From a virus: a stretch of 30,949 bases of DNA. The position numbers were made by a program, and so were the translations under genes. Shown here in pieces: positions 17,922-26,471 of the stretch (positions are counted from its first letter, which is position 1; each line of letters opens with the position of its first letter). The stretch lies in the UHGV virus genome UHGV-1530050. One strand, 5' to 3'. The notes under the pieces were generated by a model, which had not been told where the DNA came from, ran no database searches, and saw only the letters and a list, made by a program, of their open reading frames with translations.

Positions 17922-19691
17922 ATGACCATTTCCACCGATACAACCTTGTTGCATGACCCGCGACGACAGGCATCGCTGCTTTACTGGCAGGGCTTTTCCG
18001 TGCCACAGATTGCCGAAATGCTGCAGGTCAAGCGCCCGACCGTGCAGAGCTGGAAGCAGCGCGACGGCTGGGACGGCATCGCACCGATTTCCCGCGTTGA
18101 AAGCAGCCTTGAGGCGCGCCTGATTCAGCTCATCGCGAAACCACAGAAGACGGGCGGTGATTTCAAAGAGATTGACCTGCTCGGGCGGCAGATTGAGCGG
18201 CTGGCGCGCGTCAACCGCTACAGCCAGACCGGCAACGAAGCCGACCTTAACCCCAACGTCGCCAACCGCAACAAAGGGGAGCGCAAAAAGCCGAAAAAGA
18301 ATTTTTTCAGCGACGAGGCTATCGAGAAACTGGAGGAATTATTTTTCGACCAGTCTTTCGAGTACCAGTTGCAGTGGTACCGCGCAGGACTGGAGCACCG
18401 TATTCGTGACATTCTCAAATCCCGCCAGATTGGTGCGACGTTCTATTTCTCCCGCGAGGCGCTGCTGCGCGTGCTCAAAACAGGCCATAACCAGATATTT
18501 TTATCAGCCAGTAAAACGCAGGCTTACGTGTTTCGCGAATACATCATCCAGTTTGCACGACTGGTCGACGTTGACTTGACCGGCGACCCGATTGTCATCG
18601 GTAACAACGGCGCAAAACTGATTTTTCTCGGTACCAATTCCAACACCGCGCAGAGCCATAACGGCGACCTGTATGTCGATGAAATATTCTGGATCCCGAA
18701 CTTTCAGAAACTGCGCAAAGTCGCCTCGGGCATGGCTTCGCAGAAGCACCTGCGCTCGACCTACTTTTCGACACCCTCAACACTGGCGCACGGGGCTTAC
18801 CCCTTCTGGTCTGGTGAGCTGTTCAACAAGGGGCGCGCCAGTGCCGCTGACCGCATCGAAATCGACATCAGTCACCGCGCGCTCGCCGGTGGTCAGCTCT
18901 GCGACGATGGCCAGTGGCGGCAGATTGTCACCATTGAGGATGCCCTTGCCGGGGGCTGCACCCTGTTCGACCTCGACCAGCTCAAACGCGAAAACAGTGA
19001 TGAGGATTTTAAGAACCTGTTTATGTGCGAGTTTGTCGACGATAAAGCGTCGGTATTCCCGTTCGAGGAGCTGCAGCGCTGCATGGTCGACGTGATGGAA
19101 GAATGGGAGGACTTTGCCCCGTTCGCCGACCATCCGTTCGGCTCGCGCCCGGTCTGGATTGGCTACGACCCGTCACACACCGGCGACAGCGCCGGGTGCG
19201 TTGTGCTCGCGCCGCCGGTGGTCTCGGGTGGCAAGTTCCGCATGCTTGAGCGCCACCAGTGGAAAGGAATGGATTTTGCCGCTCAGGCCGAGGGCATCCG
19301 CAAGCTGACCGAGAAATACAACGTCGAATACATCGGCATTGACGCGACCGGCCTCGGTCTCGGCGTATTCCAGTTGGTGCGCTCATTCTACCCGGCGGCA
19401 CGCGGCATCCGTTACACACCTGAAATGAAAACCGCGATGGTACTCAAGGCGAAAGACACCATTCGCCGCGGCTGTCTGGAGTACGACGCCGGGGCGACCG
19501 ACGTCACGCAGTCGTTTATGTCCATCCGCAAAACCATGACCAGCAGCGGGCGCAGCGCCACTTACGAGGCCAGCCGCACCGAGGAAGCCAGTCACGCTGA
19601 TATCGCATGGGCGACCATGCACGCCCTGTTAAACGAACCGCTTTCTGCCGGTAGCGGCATGCAGCCTAAATCTATTCTGGAGTTCAACTAA
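17922..19691 (+). CDS. P: Terminase ATPase (large) subunit P
   Basis: 589 aa; P2 gpP-like; TAATG overlap with Q. Confidence 0.9.
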   Translation: MTISTDTTLLHDPRRQASLLYWQGFSVPQIAEMLQVKRPTVQSWKQRDGWDGIAPISRVESSLEARLIQLIAKPQKTGGDFKEIDLLGRQIERLARVNRYSQTGNEADLNPNVANRNKGERKKPKKNFFSDEAIEKLEELFFDQSFEYQLQWYRAGLEHRIRDILKSRQIGATFYFSREALLRVLKTGHNQIFLSASKTQAYVFREYIIQFARLVDVDLTGDPIVIGNNGAKLIFLGTNSNTAQSHNGDLYVDEIFWIPNFQKLRKVASGMASQKHLRSTYFSTPSTLAHGAYPFWSGELFNKGRASAADRIEIDISHRALAGGQLCDDGQWRQIVTIEDALAGGCTLFDLDQLKRENSDEDFKNLFMCEFVDDKASVFPFEELQRCMVDVMEEWEDFAPFADHPFGSRPVWIGYDPSHTGDSAGCVVLAPPVVSGGKFRMLERHQWKGMDFAAQAEGIRKLTEKYNVEYIGIDATGLGLGVFQLVRSFYPAARGIRYTPEMKTAMVLKAKDTIRRGCLEYDAGATDVTQSFMSIRKTMTSSGRSATYEASRTEEASHADIAWATMHALLNEPLSAGSGMQPKSILEFN

Positions 19692-20737
19692 TGGGTAAGC
19701 AAAAATCCCGCAAAGCCGCTGCGCAGAAGGCCAGCAAGCCACAACAACTGACCGCCAGCGCACCGCCAAAAACAACAGCTTTTACCTTCGGCGAGCCGGT
19801 GCCAGTGCTCGATAAGCGCGATATTCTGGATTACGTCGAGTGCATCAGTAACGGCAAATGGTACGAGCCGCCGGTCAGCTTCTCCGGGCTGGCAAAGAGC
19901 CTGCGCTCTGCAGTGCATCACAGCTCACCGATTTACGTTAAACGCAACGTGCTCGCTAGCACCTACATTCCGCACCCGCTGCTGTCCCGTCAGGATTTCA
20001 GCCGCTTTGCGCTCGACTATCTGGTATTTGGCAACGCCTTTCTTGAGCAGCGCCACAGCGTCACCGGCCAGTTAATCAAACTGCTGGCCTCGCCAGCCAA
20101 ATACACCCGACGCGGAGTCGACGATTCGATTTTCTGGTTTGTGGAAAACTTCACCCAGCCGCACGAGTTCGCGCCTGATACCGTGTTTCACCTGCTGGAG
20201 CCCGACATTAATCAGGAGATTTACGGCCTGCCCGAATATCTCAGCGCGCTAAATTCCGCCTGGCTGAATGAATCCGCGACGCTGTTCCGCCGCAAGTATT
20301 ATCAGAACGGCGCGCACGCGGGTTACATCATGTATGTGACTGACCCGGCGCAGAGCGCGACCGACGTCGAATCGCTGCGCGAGGCGATGCGCAACTCAAA
20401 AGGGCTCGGCAACTTTAAGAACCTGTTTTTCTACGCTCCCGGCGGAAAACCGGACGGCATCAAAATCGTGCCACTGAGCGAGGTCGCCACAAAGGATGAC
20501 TTTTTCAACATCAAGAAGGCCAGTGCCGCCGATCTGATGGACGCGCACCGCGTACCGTTCCAGCTCATGGGCGGCAAGCCCGAGAATATCGGTTCACTCG
20601 GTGATGTTGAGAAGGTGGCAAAGGTATTTGTGCGCAACGAGCTGTCGCCGCTACAGGACAGGTTCAGGGAGGTAAATGACTGGCTCGGCATGGAGGTCAT
20701 CAGATTCAAAGAGTACACCCTCGACAACCCAGAATAA
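19691..20737 (+). CDS. Q: Portal (capsid vertex) protein Q
   Basis: 348 aa; P2 gpQ-like sequence and position. Confidence 0.9.
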   Translation: MGKQKSRKAAAQKASKPQQLTASAPPKTTAFTFGEPVPVLDKRDILDYVECISNGKWYEPPVSFSGLAKSLRSAVHHSSPIYVKRNVLASTYIPHPLLSRQDFSRFALDYLVFGNAFLEQRHSVTGQLIKLLASPAKYTRRGVDDSIFWFVENFTQPHEFAPDTVFHLLEPDINQEIYGLPEYLSALNSAWLNESATLFRRKYYQNGAHAGYIMYVTDPAQSATDVESLREAMRNSKGLGNFKNLFFYAPGGKPDGIKIVPLSEVATKDDFFNIKKASAADLMDAHRVPFQLMGGKPENIGSLGDVEKVAKVFVRNELSPLQDRFREVNDWLGMEVIRFKEYTLDNPE

Positions 20738-20814
20738 CTTAGGCCGCCACAATCTCTGCGCTCATTATTGAAGATGCAATCTGCGAAAGCTATAGTGCAT
20801 CGAATATCAAAACA

Positions 20815-21819
20815 ATGGGCGCGGAGATTAATATTTTGGAAACTGATTTTAAAATAACCCTCGAAGGTTTCGCTACTGAGCAAGAAGCAAATAATATCGG
20901 TAATTTCACACTAGAAGCTATCCGAGCTTTAACAAAAAATCTCAATCTTGATATCTCCAAATTAAAATGCGTGATTGTTTCCTATAACTTCAGTGAAGCT
21001 CTTCAAAAGGTAACATCCTCTTACCAACACAAATCCCCTAGTTCATTTACCAATAGCAAACAGGGCGCAGCCGTCGGGCAGTTAGTAACAAAAATTGGCA
21101 ATGATGGGCTATGTGAAGAATATACCCTTGTGCTATCGATTGATTTTTTTGTTGAGCTTTTCAATGATGCTGGCTTCTTAAAACTGAAAGAAGAAGGATA
21201 CCTCGCAGTCATCCATCGCATTCACCATGAATTAGTGCACGTACATGAAAAAAACTTACTAACATGCTTAGCCCAAAACTTTACAGTCAACGAGTATGGT
21301 AGCGCGCTTCTTATCTCAGCCACGCGTGCATGGTCTGAATATCTCGCTAATTACATGTCTTCGGGGTCTGCCCCTCAAGAAACTATCGATTTATTTTTAG
21401 AGAATCTTGACACTGTTGTAAATGAAGTATCTGACGAAATTGAAAAACTCATCTGGGGTTATAAGTACGGTAATATTTCTCTGAATGACATGTATCTCGA
21501 AGTAAAAAAACGTATCAGGCTAATCATCAACTCTTATGCTTATGCGATGGGTTATGTCCATTCTCTAAACATCAATATTAAAGAATACGATCCAAAGCTA
21601 TCCCTTACACTATCCAACTCAAAGATAAGATATCAATTATCAGAATTAGGCATTGCTTTTCAGAATCTTTATGGGAAGTTTAATGACCAGCACATTACAG
21701 GTTTTGGTGATTTTCGGGAGATAACAATAATCATTGATGAAATATTCAAGCAGTTTGGGCTTGTTTTAGAGTGTCCCGATTGGTCTGGCGACGGTGAACT
21801 CTACATACATGTAAATTAG
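20815..21819 (+). CDS. Hypothetical protein with HExxH (HELVH) motif; AT-rich cargo gene between portal Q and cos
   Basis: 334 aa ORF with much lower GC than the backbone; ...VIHRIHHELVHVHEKN... contains a candidate zinc-metallopeptidase HExxH motif; RBS weak. Confidence 0.55.
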   Translation: MGAEINILETDFKITLEGFATEQEANNIGNFTLEAIRALTKNLNLDISKLKCVIVSYNFSEALQKVTSSYQHKSPSSFTNSKQGAAVGQLVTKIGNDGLCEEYTLVLSIDFFVELFNDAGFLKLKEEGYLAVIHRIHHELVHVHEKNLLTCLAQNFTVNEYGSALLISATRAWSEYLANYMSSGSAPQETIDLFLENLDTVVNEVSDEIEKLIWGYKYGNISLNDMYLEVKKRIRLIINSYAYAMGYVHSLNINIKEYDPKLSLTLSNSKIRYQLSELGIAFQNLYGKFNDQHITGFGDFREITIIIDEIFKQFGLVLECPDWSGDGELYIHVN

Positions 21820-22038
21820 TTTAATCATAGTAGAAACATAATTAGCAGTTTGAATCCTGCCACTCCTGTAAAGCCGCTGCTCCTGGTGGCTTTTCCATGC
21901 ACACCACCATCACGCATCAGATGTGTCTCACGCGCACGAACACACCTGACCACCAACGAACCAGCAGCGACCACGACAGCGCCATCACGATGCGCTCAGA
22001 AGATAATTTTTATTATTACGCATCACTGCTGGCGCGCA

Positions 22039-22057
22039 ATGCTTTCCCCGCCACGCC
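22039..22057 (-). other. cos site (19-nt cohesive end, 186-type)
   Basis: The reverse complement of 22039..22057 reads GGCGTGGCGGGGAAAGCAT, matching the 19-nt cohesive end of phage 186 as I recall it (P2 differs at 2 positions); lies between Q and A as expected. Confidence 0.6.
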
Positions 22058-22150
22058 TGCCCGCTTTATGGGGCGGTTTTAATGCAGTTGCATGACCACT
22101 CTGGATCCCCGCCAGCTCTTGCGGCGCACGTACAAAACGGGTAACCCCGG

Positions 22151-22293: not shown

Positions 22294-23235
22294 ATGCAAG
22301 GTGAAGTTGACGAACAGCAACCCAATGAGATTATGTCGGAGTTTGGATACTATCCAGTAGAAGTTAACATTGAGACTGAACAATTTTCTTTGCTTACTTT
22401 ACCTGGTCTCAATGAGAAAGTGGAGCGTGTTAACAATGATAAAAACGTTGTGAAAGGTTGGATATACCCTGGAAACCAAGATGTATATAACCTTAATGGT
22501 GGTATATCCACAATGCCTTATAGTCACCGAGTATTCAGTATGCCCAAAACGCACACACTAAAATTAAAAAATACATCCTCGTTAGAAACTCTCAACTTTA
22601 TTGTGTGGTGCCTTTCTTTTTTCAAGGGAATAAGATTGACAACCACTGACGCTGGTTTTTTAGATGCAACCACTATCAAGCCCACTAAGTTAACCGACTT
22701 TATTCTCGTTGGATGCTCTGAAAAAGAAGTCATAGAACTGGCTCTTAATTATATAAATGGCAAACATAAGGATGCGCACTCCCCCAAAAGAATTGCGGCA
22801 GTGGTGCATGCACTATTCTTATCTCAAAACCCACAATACCTTTCTTTTGAAAAATTCCAGTACCTTTACATGGCACTTGATGGGTGCTTTGCTTTGTCGT
22901 GGGCTGAGCATGACAAGGCTCCTGATAAAAAACCGCCAAATCATTACAAGCGATTAAAGTGGATGTGCAAAATTTATGGGTTATCAATCCCCACATGGGT
23001 GTCAGGTAAAAAAAACATTTCTGGCATCCGCAATGATAATTTTCATGAGGCTATTTTTTTTGGTCAACCGCTTGGTTTCTCAAGTGTTAATAACAGTCAA
23101 TATGGTAACGATATATTGCTGCAAATGCAGGCACTGGTATGTCGCCTATTAGCGGCAATACTGTCGGTTAATGATTGCAGTTATCTCAAATCTTCGGTCA
23201 ACTCACGAGATTACCATTCATTAAAAATAAATTAA
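22294..23235 (+). CDS. Hypothetical protein; AT-rich cargo gene in the cos-proximal Q/A slot (P2 tin/old position)
   Basis: 313 aa ORF with a strong GGAG RBS 8 nt upstream; low GC; convergent with replication gene A as P2 old/tin are. Confidence 0.6.
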   Translation: MQGEVDEQQPNEIMSEFGYYPVEVNIETEQFSLLTLPGLNEKVERVNNDKNVVKGWIYPGNQDVYNLNGGISTMPYSHRVFSMPKTHTLKLKNTSSLETLNFIVWCLSFFKGIRLTTTDAGFLDATTIKPTKLTDFILVGCSEKEVIELALNYINGKHKDAHSPKRIAAVVHALFLSQNPQYLSFEKFQYLYMALDGCFALSWAEHDKAPDKKPPNHYKRLKWMCKIYGLSIPTWVSGKKNISGIRNDNFHEAIFFGQPLGFSSVNNSQYGNDILLQMQALVCRLLAAILSVNDCSYLKSSVNSRDYHSLKIN

Positions 23236-23309: not shown

Positions 23310-23519
23310 CTATCGTCGACGTGGTGGTGGTGCGTATTGTTTCGACCTGCTGATGCTATCCAGCTTGCCGTAATTATCCCTGACTATTTCGGCACACCCG
23401 ACCAGCTCTGCGGGTGTCAAATTCTCATTGACCATTATCTGCTGCAAACGATGAACGATGGCCATCAGTTTGATGCTTTTAGTTTTGTGCTGCGGTATTT
23501 CACCTGGTAGTCGATGCAT
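23310..23519 (-). CDS. Small hypothetical ORF (69 aa)
   Basis: ORF only; uncertain start; located downstream of the dinI-like gene. Confidence 0.3.
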   Translation of the reverse strand: MHRLPGEIPQHKTKSIKLMAIVHRLQQIMVNENLTPAELVGCAEIVRDNYGKLDSISRSKQYAPPPRRR

Positions 23520-23718: not shown

Positions 23719-23949
23719 TTAACGCCAGCTATCGTCTTCCCAAATCTCTTGTAATATGCTGCCTAATGTTTCTCTGTCCGCCTCTTTATCGAATCCGATA
23801 GCCTCTACACCAGTCATTGACCCTTTCTTAACGTTAACTTTTGTTGCAGGAAAAACGCATTGTACTCGATGTGTTATTTCATTCTGAAAAGCATCAATGA
23901 TCTGTTGCCCTAATTTTTGCTCTTTATCCAACGTGATATTGATTCTCAT
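23719..23949 (-). CDS. DinI-like damage-inducible protein domain (possible Tum-like antirepressor C-terminal part)
   Basis: 76 aa; MRINITLDK...RVQCVFPA...ILQEIWEDDSW resembles the DinI family; in the same frame as the upstream 60-aa ORF, separated by a single TAG. Confidence 0.7.
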   Translation of the reverse strand: MRINITLDKEQKLGQQIIDAFQNEITHRVQCVFPATKVNVKKGSMTGVEAIGFDKEADRETLGSILQEIWEDDSWR

Positions 23950-24248: not shown

Positions 24249-26471
24249 TTACTCATGTATTGGTTTTGATGCTTCAGCCATCGCCGCAACACGATTAAGG
24301 ATTTTCCGAGCTTTAGCCTCATGCGATGGTGCTGCGGAAAATATTTCTCCTTTGGCCGTTCCGCGTAGCCATTTACCATCAAAACAACTTTTACCACCGG
24401 CCATCAGGTGCAGGGCTTCGCCCCGGCTGATATTAATGCCGGTTGTCAGATGTATTTCGTCGATAGTTTTAGCTATAGCTGCGTTTTGCTCATCCGTTCC
24501 GTGGATGAATTTTCGCCGTGCTGCTGGCTTTTGCTTCCTGAGTCGGTTGGTCAATTCTCGTCTTTCACGCCGACTCAGTGGTTTTGTTAAATCCAGTATC
24601 GGTGGATCGCTTTCGCTTCCCGTACAGTTATTGACAGAACTCCGAGGGACGGCTTTGCCGTCCTGAAGGTCAACGGCCAAATCAACAGCACGCTTCGGAA
24701 CAATCTTCCACTGAGTGAGCCGGGTTAAAATCGGACTCCCTGCACCTATGGAGGAATCGTAGACTCCCTTAATACATACCGTTTCCTCACCGTACTGATT
24801 AAGCTCGGTACGCGGTTCATACAGTGTGCGCACCTGTAAATCATCGCGACGGACAAACGGCCCACCCTGAGCATTAACATAACCAGCCCAGTCACCAGCG
24901 TCGGCGGCATCATGGACGGCGGCAAACTCAACGCTCAGTCCGTGCGCGGTTTCGGTATCAGCGAGGCGACGCAACTCACGGTAAACCGTCACCGGCGCAC
25001 CACCGATAAACTGAAACTGACGGATGTGCCAGCGCGCAGCCCATGCTGAAACGGCGGGGGCTGTCTCTTTCAGTAGCTCACCGCTTTCATCATCGGTTTC
25101 ACCATCGAGAGCATAACCGTCGATATTTTTTGAAATGTATTTAGCAACATAGCCGGTTGCGCTGCCTTTCTCCGGGTCAATGGACTCGGCGTGGAAACGT
25201 GCTTTTTTGGATTTATCGCTTTTCAGTTCGTGGCGGTCTTCTTTCCATGCGTATTTACGGACGATGGAGCGAACATATTCAACATCTTCCGGCAGCATGA
25301 ACATCAGCATGTGCCAGTGTGGAGTGCCGTCGTGATGAGGCTCGGCGACACGAATACCGAAAATACGGACATCTTCCCGATGTAGTTTGGCACGGATACG
25401 CGCCCAGATACCGGTTAGATAGTTTTGCGTGTCAGCCGGGCTGGCACCGCTCCATTTGCTGTTACGGTAACCGGCTTTAGTCGTGGCGTGATATTTTGAC
25501 GGCGCGGTTAGAGTGTAAAACTCACCGACATAACCGAGCTCATTACAGATGTTTTCAAACCCACGAATGCGGGTCATGAGCTCACAGCGGCGAATCGCAG
25601 GGTTAGCAACTGAGCCATCATATTTTTCAATCAGGCTGATACGGTTGCCGTCTTCGTCTTCGAGATCCAGACCTTTGAGAAATTCACGAGTGCGGCGCTT
25701 TTGTTCACGCCAGTCAGTCACGCAGTTTTTACTCGCGTAAGTGTTTTTTTTCTTACTGACGTTGCCGACTGCAATTTGCAGGTGTTCGCGCCACGTAGCT
25801 GCAACACGGCGCAAACGACCGCGCCACCACCCATCGTTAAACATTTTGGCGATAGCCGGTGCGATTTCATCCGCACCGACATATTTTTTTTCAACCCGCT
25901 CCCAATGTGGTGGGATAACGTTAAATTGGAGGGAAATAAAGCCAGCACGAATATACCAGGTGTACAGCGTTTTAAGCTCGCCGAATCCGTGGTCATTAAT
26001 GTTGGCAAGTTCACCACGAATGAAATTAGCAATATCAGCGGCCAACAGGTCAACATCAGCGCGCGACATATCCGGGAGACGGTTATATCGGGCGACCATA
26101 TTAACCATGCGTGACGACAGATATTGCATTTGCTGAGTATCAAAATGACTTCCAAAAACAGCGGTTGATACCTTGCTGTTGATACCAGCGCATTCGTATT
26201 TTTTTGCGACCAGTTCAAGACGCGGCAATGCCTTTTTGCAGAAGTTGATTAAAAATGCATTGGCTCGTTGACTACCCTGATTTTGCTCCAGCACCGCAGC
26301 AGTGCGATAAACATCTAACCGCACGCAGTCGGGCTGGAGAGAAAGCACCTTTTTTGCATGCAGCAAAGCCGCGAACATACGGTCGCGGCGATGCTGTTGC
26401 TCATAAGTAAGGTATGGGCTGGAGATTGCCGACCGTGGGACGTTCCACGGATAAGCGAATTGAACAGCCAA
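24249..26471 (-). CDS. A: Replication initiation protein A (rolling-circle endonuclease)
   Basis: 740 aa; P2/186 gpA-like (HHDGTPHWHMLMF region); last gene of the early operon. Confidence 0.9.
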   Translation of the reverse strand: MAVQFAYPWNVPRSAISSPYLTYEQQHRRDRMFAALLHAKKVLSLQPDCVRLDVYRTAAVLEQNQGSQRANAFLINFCKKALPRLELVAKKYECAGINSKVSTAVFGSHFDTQQMQYLSSRMVNMVARYNRLPDMSRADVDLLAADIANFIRGELANINDHGFGELKTLYTWYIRAGFISLQFNVIPPHWERVEKKYVGADEIAPAIAKMFNDGWWRGRLRRVAATWREHLQIAVGNVSKKKNTYASKNCVTDWREQKRRTREFLKGLDLEDEDGNRISLIEKYDGSVANPAIRRCELMTRIRGFENICNELGYVGEFYTLTAPSKYHATTKAGYRNSKWSGASPADTQNYLTGIWARIRAKLHREDVRIFGIRVAEPHHDGTPHWHMLMFMLPEDVEYVRSIVRKYAWKEDRHELKSDKSKKARFHAESIDPEKGSATGYVAKYISKNIDGYALDGETDDESGELLKETAPAVSAWAARWHIRQFQFIGGAPVTVYRELRRLADTETAHGLSVEFAAVHDAADAGDWAGYVNAQGGPFVRRDDLQVRTLYEPRTELNQYGEETVCIKGVYDSSIGAGSPILTRLTQWKIVPKRAVDLAVDLQDGKAVPRSSVNNCTGSESDPPILDLTKPLSRRERRELTNRLRKQKPAARRKFIHGTDEQNAAIAKTIDEIHLTTGINISRGEALHLMAGGKSCFDGKWLRGTAKGEIFSAAPSHEAKARKILNRVAAMAEASKPIHE

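Follow-up and report, generated by a model that had tools for sequence, protein, structure and literature searches.

Protease-based immunity is well known in eukaryotes; in bacteria, to our knowledge, few cases have been characterized, among them Lit, CHAT/SAVED and CalpL, and IetS. Lit, encoded by the e14 cryptic prophage, stays latent until the T4 Gol peptide activates its cleavage of EF-Tu, which aborts the infection. Other small zinc peptidases found on mobile elements, those of the ImmA/IrrE and CapP types, pair with an adjacent helix-turn-helix (HTH) repressor, which they cleave. Here, we examine ORF334, an AT-rich open reading frame (ORF) of 334 codons located between the portal gene Q and the cohesive-end site (cos) of the virus genome UHGV-1530050. 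The stretch analyzed (30,949 nucleotides; “the window”) belongs to the P2 group (Peduoviridae) and resembles phage 186. In our preferred reading, to which we assign a probability of about one half, ORF334 is a stand-alone moron, probably a one-gene defense against phages whose latent zinc protease would shield the lysogen.

The gpQ–gpA interval of P2-like phages is a published defense hotspot (Rousset et al. 2022, PMC9122126), in agreement with an earlier note on the window, made from its sequence alone, that had described the interval as a known accessory and anti-phage hotspot. The order Q, ORF334, cos, A places our gene squarely within it, and ORF334 shares the variable presence and the atypical G+C content of hotspot cargo. 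More than one-third of the systems cloned from hotspots proved active (PMC9122126), as did six of eight randomly picked P4 hotspot loci of unknown function in a second study, which also reported a Lit homolog in a P2-like prophage (PMC13586616). These base rates make a defense role plausible. The gpQ–gpA hotspot also carries non-defense cargo, however, namely partition systems and a cytolethal distending toxin (Rousset et al., PMC9122126), and this favors a different account, in which ORF334 is a moron conferring a metabolic, stress or virulence advantage, or a selfish passenger without benefit. Table S5A of PMC9122126 contains the protein WP_001622301, which from its position and neighbors is probably ORF334, together with WP_001622299, WP_001622297, DinI and two more (six “hypothetical/DinI” proteins in all), and contains it again with other companions; no relative of ORF334 is among the constructs cloned in that study (Table S2).

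How is the gene seated in the phage backbone? Aligned to 186 and PSP3, the window matches up to position 20749, i.e., through the first half of the rho-independent Q/W terminator (tW), and matches again from 21865/21871 to cos. Because the alignment breaks at the left arm of tW and resumes at a full copy of it, we conclude that about 1.1 kb of foreign DNA, carrying a single gene, interrupts the late P–Q operon within its terminator. A terminator-like site (21876–21890) lies within the retained tW copy downstream of ORF334. In 186, the terminator alone lies between W and cos, with tW annotated 8 nt past the W stop. The distance from the Q/W stop to cos is 167 nt in P2 (Q stop at 187, cosL at 1–19) and 176 nt in 186 (W stop at 196); in the window, 1301 nt separate the Q stop at 20737 from cos. 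The earlier note had put these gaps at about 130 bp for P2, which is roughly right, and about 1.3 kb here, which is accurate. The cos 19-mer is identical to those of 186 and PSP3, ATGCTTTCCCCGCCACGCC being the reverse complement of the 186 cohesive end. The foreign character of the cargo, also claimed in that note, is borne out by these boundaries and by base composition: the G+C content of ORF334 is 0.376, vs. 0.576 for P and 0.562 for Q (0.56–0.58 for the backbone), and the corresponding values at third codon positions are 0.36, 0.73 and 0.71.

The distribution of ORF334 is that of an exchangeable gene. Of 5426 complete E. coli genomes, 26 contain its DNA, single-copy and chromosomal every time, whereas a P2-type Q gene is detectable in 1208; about 98% of the Q-bearing genomes thus lack it. 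It was not found in 186, PSP3, P2 or most P2-like prophages, and the sole phage record to carry it is that of vB_EcoM-613R3. The end of Q is contiguous with the cos region in PSP3 and at least eight Yersinia phages, and the junction is uninterrupted in 12 of the 63 E. coli genomes that match the 186-type Q-end/cos stretch. At least one of the 63, E. coli EC12 (NZ_CP060933.1), carries at this junction a DUF2188 gene (1638–1949 of the extracted locus, minus strand) on the strand opposite to that of the late operon, beside an identical portal protein. Given these empty sites and the DUF2188 alternative, the Q–terminator junction constitutes a separate site of exchange within the gpQ–gpA hotspot, one that accepts two or more different cargos. 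The portal, DinI and Tum-like proteins of the EC12 prophage are all identical to those of the ORF334-bearing prophage of E. coli strain 222.

What kind of protein does the gene encode? The HELVH motif, which had been noticed as a candidate metallopeptidase zinc site, comprises residues 138–142 (plus strand, within HRIHHELVHVHEKN). Across 29 homologs, the most divergent of them 42% identical, HHELVHVHE and WSEYxAN do not vary. In a wider set of 91 sequences, with a mean identity to ORF334 of about 20%, the sole invariant columns are H138, E139, H142 and E175; W173, Y176 and A178 are retained in 90% or more of the sequences. With no other column invariant at this depth, the HExxH is no chance occurrence, and HExxH plus a downstream Glu is the gluzincin signature. 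The AlphaFold2 model, calculated with the alignment, is a confident one (predicted local distance difference test score 90.9, predicted template-modeling score 0.90). It consists of a four-stranded sheet with helices (about residues 13–115), the HExxH helix (126–148), the Glu-bearing helix (160–185) and, in the C-terminal half, a helical domain (188–313) with a small closing hairpin. The model has the mixed N-terminal sheet and helical subdomain of a thermolysin-like fold. Neither a signal peptide nor a membrane segment was detected in ORF334, and the model is fully globular. From these data, we conclude that ORF334 is very probably a cytoplasmic zinc metallohydrolase of the gluzincin fold, belonging to a family so far undescribed; the family-wide signature on this predicted fold supports the suggestion of a metallopeptidase zinc site.

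Relationships to known enzymes were sought at several levels. Profile searches of Protein Data Bank (PDB) sequences with the 29- and 91-sequence profiles returned coiled-coil noise only, and a Foldseek search with the model found no significant match in the PDB or BFVD; the weak matches included M61, YbeY, Wss1, PPEP-1 and a viral “Peptidase.” An hhalign comparison of the 91-sequence profile with K-12 Lit aligned 17 columns at 16% probability, i.e., no homology beyond the motif, and a comparison of the family profile with the catalytic domain of PepN yielded nothing. It follows that kinship with known peptidases is visible at the level of the fold only. YbeY appears among the weak structural matches, and ORF334 might accordingly be imagined as a zincin-fold hydrolase other than a protease (a YbeY-like metallo-ribonuclease or an amidase) or as a catalytically inert scaffold, with any biological role; alongside the invariant catalytic signature in all 91 sequences, we consider this quite unlikely.

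The family is large. A word-indexed search gave 78 clusters, all labeled hypothetical, from Escherichia, Salmonella, Citrobacter, Klebsiella, Serratia, Yersinia, Pectobacterium, Enterobacter, Kosakonia, Shewanella and Psychromonas; two Salmonella clusters each occur on at least 1000 contigs. An exhaustive profile search gave 348 representatives at 50% identity, nearly all of them 300–340 amino acids long. Nearly all copies have an uninterrupted reading frame, and pairwise dN/dS (the ratio of nonsynonymous to synonymous substitution rates) against orthologs is 0.17–0.33; these comparisons indicate a functional gene under purifying selection. One copy, that of an IMG/VR locus (L031, 5001–6002), contains five in-frame stops if translated in the frame of the window; it is probably frameshifted or decaying, or reflects an assembly error. 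Two distant members of about 595 amino acids (P0139 and P0210) have an N-terminal DUF2971 domain fused to the part of the family that extends from HExxH to the C terminus, a fusion that might hint at a sensor or partner function.

The earlier note had assigned no phage structural role to the protein, and we likewise found none: the PHROG matches are to families of unknown function only, Pfam gave no match, and no similarity to a capsid, portal, terminase or scaffold protein was detected. Given the rarity of the gene and its foreign composition, we reject a structural or morphogenetic role.

The translation start can be placed with some assurance. A GGAG-N9-TTG arrangement is invariant in all nine aligned loci, very distant phages included; the RefSeq product has 327 amino acids; the equivalent Met is the start in most homologs; and AlphaFold confidence is below 50 for residues 1–7. 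Consequently, the true start is probably the TTG at 20836 rather than position 20815. A sigma-70-like promoter candidate precedes the gene. It is conserved in the enterobacterial copies, and in two distant P2-like viral loci (L035 and L037, with P 38–40% and Q 33–36% identical) only the −35 element is kept. The ORF334 homologs of these two loci are also strongly AT-rich (G+C content of 0.33–0.36 vs. 0.54–0.56).

Does the gene act alone? The earlier note had raised the possibility that ORF334 acts with the gene at 22294 (ORF313), another AT-rich cargo gene, which lies across cos toward A. Such a two-gene system spanning cos draws on the similar composition of the genes (G+C content of 0.38 and 0.39), their common strand, their spacing of 475 nt, and their joint occurrence in 17 complete E. 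coli genomes and in phage vB_EcoM-613R3. Those 17 are, however, drawn from 26 genomes with ORF334 and 93 with ORF313: ORF334 occurs without ORF313 in 9 of 26 (e.g., strains PKF8 and 1008S13), and ORF313 without ORF334 in 76 of 93, as well as in P2-EC67 (AM157369) and several Yersinia phages. Each gene also occurs alone in otherwise near-identical prophages, and both are present in only 1 of 13 IMG/VR loci. In addition, cos and the tW terminator separate the two genes, and no ORF313-like neighbor was found in the non-phage ORF334 loci; a 312-amino-acid neighbor in Psychromonas bears no similarity to ORF313. The proposed partnership is thus unsupported, ORF313 is rejected as a partner, and a two-gene system, which we regard as very improbable, is largely refuted by distribution. 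Because it assorts independently, ORF313 is a hotspot candidate of its own; searches of Pfam, NCBIfam, PADLOC and PDB sequences gave no match to it, and it also occurs in Enterobacter and Citrobacter. An all-against-all BLASTP comparison of neighbors in 18 loci revealed no conserved partner of ORF334 outside the P2 backbone. With no conserved neighbor and independent assortment from ORF313, ORF334 is a single-gene unit, and outside phages it is solitary.

The neighborhoods of these solitary, non-phage homologs, in which defense genes are frequent, bear on function. One homolog lies in Tn7-like cargo with AAA+Peptidase_S8, SMODS+SLATT, and a type I restriction–modification (RM) system; another adjoins Wadjet (Mks/JetD) and a TerB protein; a third is near Mrr_cat and two TIR_2 proteins. 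In Colwellia, the homolog stands between a TIR effector and PD-T4-7. It stands beside a DRT-associated DUF1848 protein in Psychromonas aquimarina, beside PDC-S32 in a Vibrio, and near HsdR and other candidates in Psychromonas marina; in Serratia fonticola, a protein with a faint HEPN match and pP_pnuc proteins are nearby. Five of ten scanned genes near (mostly adjoining) ORF334 homologs matched PADLOC models at E < 1e-5. The earlier proposal of a defense or abortive-infection effector therefore keeps a circumstantial footing, consisting of the hotspot position and of the defense neighbors of distant homologs in unrelated genomes. The same recurrence beside defense genes in unrelated taxa, together with purifying selection, argues against a non-defense moron or selfish passenger. 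A secreted virulence factor in particular is improbable for a globular protein with neither signal peptide nor membrane segment. The uncharacterized state of all family members leaves room for such an account, which we nevertheless judge unlikely.

The main rival is a phage-benefit protease: a late gene of the P–Q unit that acts in the phage's own lytic growth, through counter-defense or host remodeling, and gives the lysogen no protection. Each of the 13 IMG/VR loci, and each E. coli, Citrobacter or Escherichia sp. prophage inspected, has the gene immediately after Q and in the same orientation. Within the window, no terminator separates it from the Q stop, the retained tW lying beyond it, and even in L035 and L037 only an Ogr-like gene intervenes between Q and the homolog. 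Several features speak against this account. Solitary homologs reside in non-phage chromosomal islands beside RM, Wadjet, TIR, SMODS/SLATT, PD-T4-7 and DRT components, and defense genes, not counter-defense genes, cluster there. The gene is AT-rich even in distant phages, it is missing from nearly all E. coli genomes with a P2-type portal gene, and a promoter-like site precedes it. We therefore hold a purely phage-serving role to be rather unlikely, serious as it is as a competitor. The Ogr-like gene just mentioned is a 108-amino-acid ORF (4639–4965 in L035, 4624–4950 in L037; plus strand) that overlaps the Q stop and precedes the ORF334 homolog. From its CPECG...C..C zinc-finger motifs, read by eye, it appears to be of the Ogr/Delta type, an unusual place for a late-gene activator.

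Other considerations weigh against protection of the lysogen as the function of ORF334. Every phage locus has the gene on the P–Q strand and upstream of the operon terminator. For that reason, its synthesis is expected at a late stage of the phage's lytic growth, a timing that would fit a benefit to the phage (counter-defense) as well as one to the lysogen. The candidate promoter matches the consensus at only 9 of 12 positions. The defense association was judged on about a dozen loci, as guilt by association without statistical control, and some contexts are uninformative or housekeeping in character, such as the position after putA in one locus (L018) and beside groES/EL-region genes in Shewanella. 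Finally, the family is uncharacterized throughout. No Pfam, NCBIfam or PADLOC (PADLOC-DB 2.0.0) model corresponds to it, Pfam and PADLOC having been searched at E ≤ 1; the PADLOC check that the earlier note had proposed accordingly came back empty for ORF334. The 91 family members yielded scattered single, weak, chance-level matches in the same scans, and the PHROG match, phrog_11743, is annotated “unknown.”

If ORF334 is indeed an anti-phage module, its operation may be pictured as follows. An accessory gene would have recombined into the terminator directly downstream of Q, at the Q-side edge of the gpQ–gpA hotspot. Its product would be a soluble protein of about 37 kDa with an N-terminal thermolysin-like (gluzincin) zinc metallopeptidase domain, in which H138 and H142 of HExxH and E175 on the next helix would hold the zinc, and E139 would serve as the catalytic base. 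The α-helical C-terminal domain may recognize the substrate or the trigger. Expression would proceed from the gene's own promoter in the lysogen and, late in the phage's lytic cycle, by read-through from P–Q. The enzyme would remain latent until a competing phage supplied a trigger or substrate. Once active, it would cleave either an essential host factor, causing abortive infection in the manner of Lit acting on EF-Tu, or a phage protein.

Table. Features of the window around the Q–cos–A interval
Feature	Position	Strand	Basis or remark
Terminase gene P	17922–19691	+	ORF list; P2-group gene layout
Portal gene Q (186 W homolog), last conserved late gene before the insertion	19691–20737	+	portal annotation in ON470592 and E. 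coli prophages
Left boundary: left-arm remnant of the Q/W terminator, AGGCCGCCA	20741–20749	+	alignment to 186 tW ends here
Inserted AT-rich cargo segment, about 1.1 kb	20750–21864	+	without counterpart in 186, PSP3 and many relatives
Sigma-70-like promoter candidate, TTGAAG-17-TATAGT	20768–20796	+	consensus scan; prediction
ORF334, predicted cytoplasmic gluzincin-type zinc metallopeptidase	20815–21819	+	334 amino acids
ORF334 domains			N-terminal catalytic, about residues 8–187; C-terminal helical, about 188–334
GGAG Shine–Dalgarno sequence, 9-nt spacer, TTG	20823–20826; TTG 20836–20838	+	probable true ORF334 start
HExxH codons, H138-E139-L-V-H142	21226–21240	+	on helix 126–148; invariant in 29 and 91 sequences
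E175 codon (in WSEY), predicted third zinc ligand	21337–21339	+	on next helix, 160–185; invariant in 91 sequences
Right boundary: complete, slightly degenerate Q/W terminator copy, AAGCCGCTGCTCCTGGTGGCTTTTCC	21871–21895	+	aligns to 186/PSP3 tW
cos cohesive-end 19-mer, ATGCTTTCCCCGCCACGCC	22039–22057	−	alignment to annotated cos of 186 and PSP3
ORF313, second AT-rich cargo gene, A side of cos	22294–23235	+	G+C content 0.385; phrog_5937, “function unknown”
Small ORF	23310–23519	−	phrog_11386
DinI-family gene	23719–23949	−	Pfam E 1.7e-17
Tum-like ORF, 60 amino acids	23953–24135	−	phrog_1993; “UV induction of prophage” in ON470592
Replication gene A	24249–26471	−	

The remainder of the cos–A interval offers a few further observations. 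The DinI allele differs among otherwise similar prophages (47–100% identity). Directly after the cos 19-mer, a GC-rich hairpin followed by TTTTAATGC (22057–22076, plus strand) was flagged as terminator-like, and near-identical sequence follows the cos core in the pFR106 and pFR108 inserts of PMC9122126; it may be a terminator, part of the terminase recognition region, or both. Two short ORFs that run across the 19-mer (21850–22095 and 21897–22082, plus strand) are annotated as “hypothetical protein” in ON470592 and some RefSeq genomes. They lie in conserved non-coding sequence flanking cos and are probably spurious gene calls.

A broader claim can be put forward, tentatively. ORF334 may found an unrecognized family, of about 350 clusters at 50% identity, in which stand-alone gluzincin proteases serve singly as abortive-infection or other anti-phage systems, with a trigger and a target unlike those of Lit. 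Such a family would range from Enterobacterales prophages to marine Gammaproteobacteria and beyond, in Tn7 cargo and defense islands, and would mark the Q–terminator junction as a separate late-operon cargo slot. If the defense reading is true, a compact one-gene zinc protease adds an effector class, and the search for its trigger and cleavage target becomes feasible, since there is a single protein with a confident model and four evident active-site residues. The Q side of cos, within the terminator of the late operon, would then be a separate cargo slot in 186-like phages, and a “hypothetical” gene of E. coli, Salmonella, Citrobacter, Klebsiella, Serratia, Yersinia and Pectobacterium prophages would gain a function. 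Should ORF334 instead be a phage counter-defense protease, the outcome would be equally useful, because few proteolytic anti-defense proteins are known to us.

Among described systems, Lit (Peptidase_U49, PF10463) is the one that ORF334 most resembles. Both are prophage-borne, single-gene, cytoplasmic proteins of about 300 amino acids, and both have an HHExxH motif (HHEISH in Lit, HHELVH in ORF334) with a downstream Glu. Pfam U49 matched neither ORF334 at E ≤ 1 nor any of the 91 family members, and no Lit counterpart of the C-terminal helical domain or the N-terminal sheet was shown. We would thus regard Lit as the closest functional analog of ORF334, not as a homolog. Compared with gluzincins of clan MA(E) (the M1 aminopeptidase catalytic domain, M4 thermolysin, M9 collagenase, M30 lugdulysin and the uncharacterized structure 3cmn), ORF334 is 8–13% identical, and no Pfam peptidase model matches it. 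Its HExxH-to-Glu spacing is 32 residues, whereas that of M1 and M4 is 18–20. Unlike those enzymes, it stands alone as a small protein, has a helical C-terminal domain of its own and lacks a secretion signal.

The ImmA/IrrE (M78) and CapP-type enzymes are, like ORF334, small cytoplasmic HExxH zinc peptidases on mobile elements. ORF334 differs from ImmA/IrrE in having no conserved neighbor in the 18 loci (its flanks are Q and cos), no M78 Pfam match and about twice the size. A regulator of this type was considered and rejected, as there is neither an HTH neighbor nor an M78 signal. Literature searches on zincin and metalloprotease defense genes found nothing on the ORF334 family. Among the hotspot inserts, the “Peptidase + TM” system of pFR104 (PMC9122126) consists of an unrelated 161-amino-acid HELAH protein and a membrane protein; by our own reading, the former is a candidate ImmA/IrrE-like protein. 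Hotspot cargos such as old, tin and the DUF4238, DprA+PRTase and TIR systems (PMC9122126) resemble ORF334 in occupying the same interval, in being AT-rich and in being swapped between near-identical prophages. They differ in placement: ORF334 is inserted into the terminator of the late operon, on the Q side of cos, and old and tin lie on the A side. Set against these systems, ORF334 represents a new, uncharacterized family, although both its enzyme fold and the kind of locus that it occupies are known.

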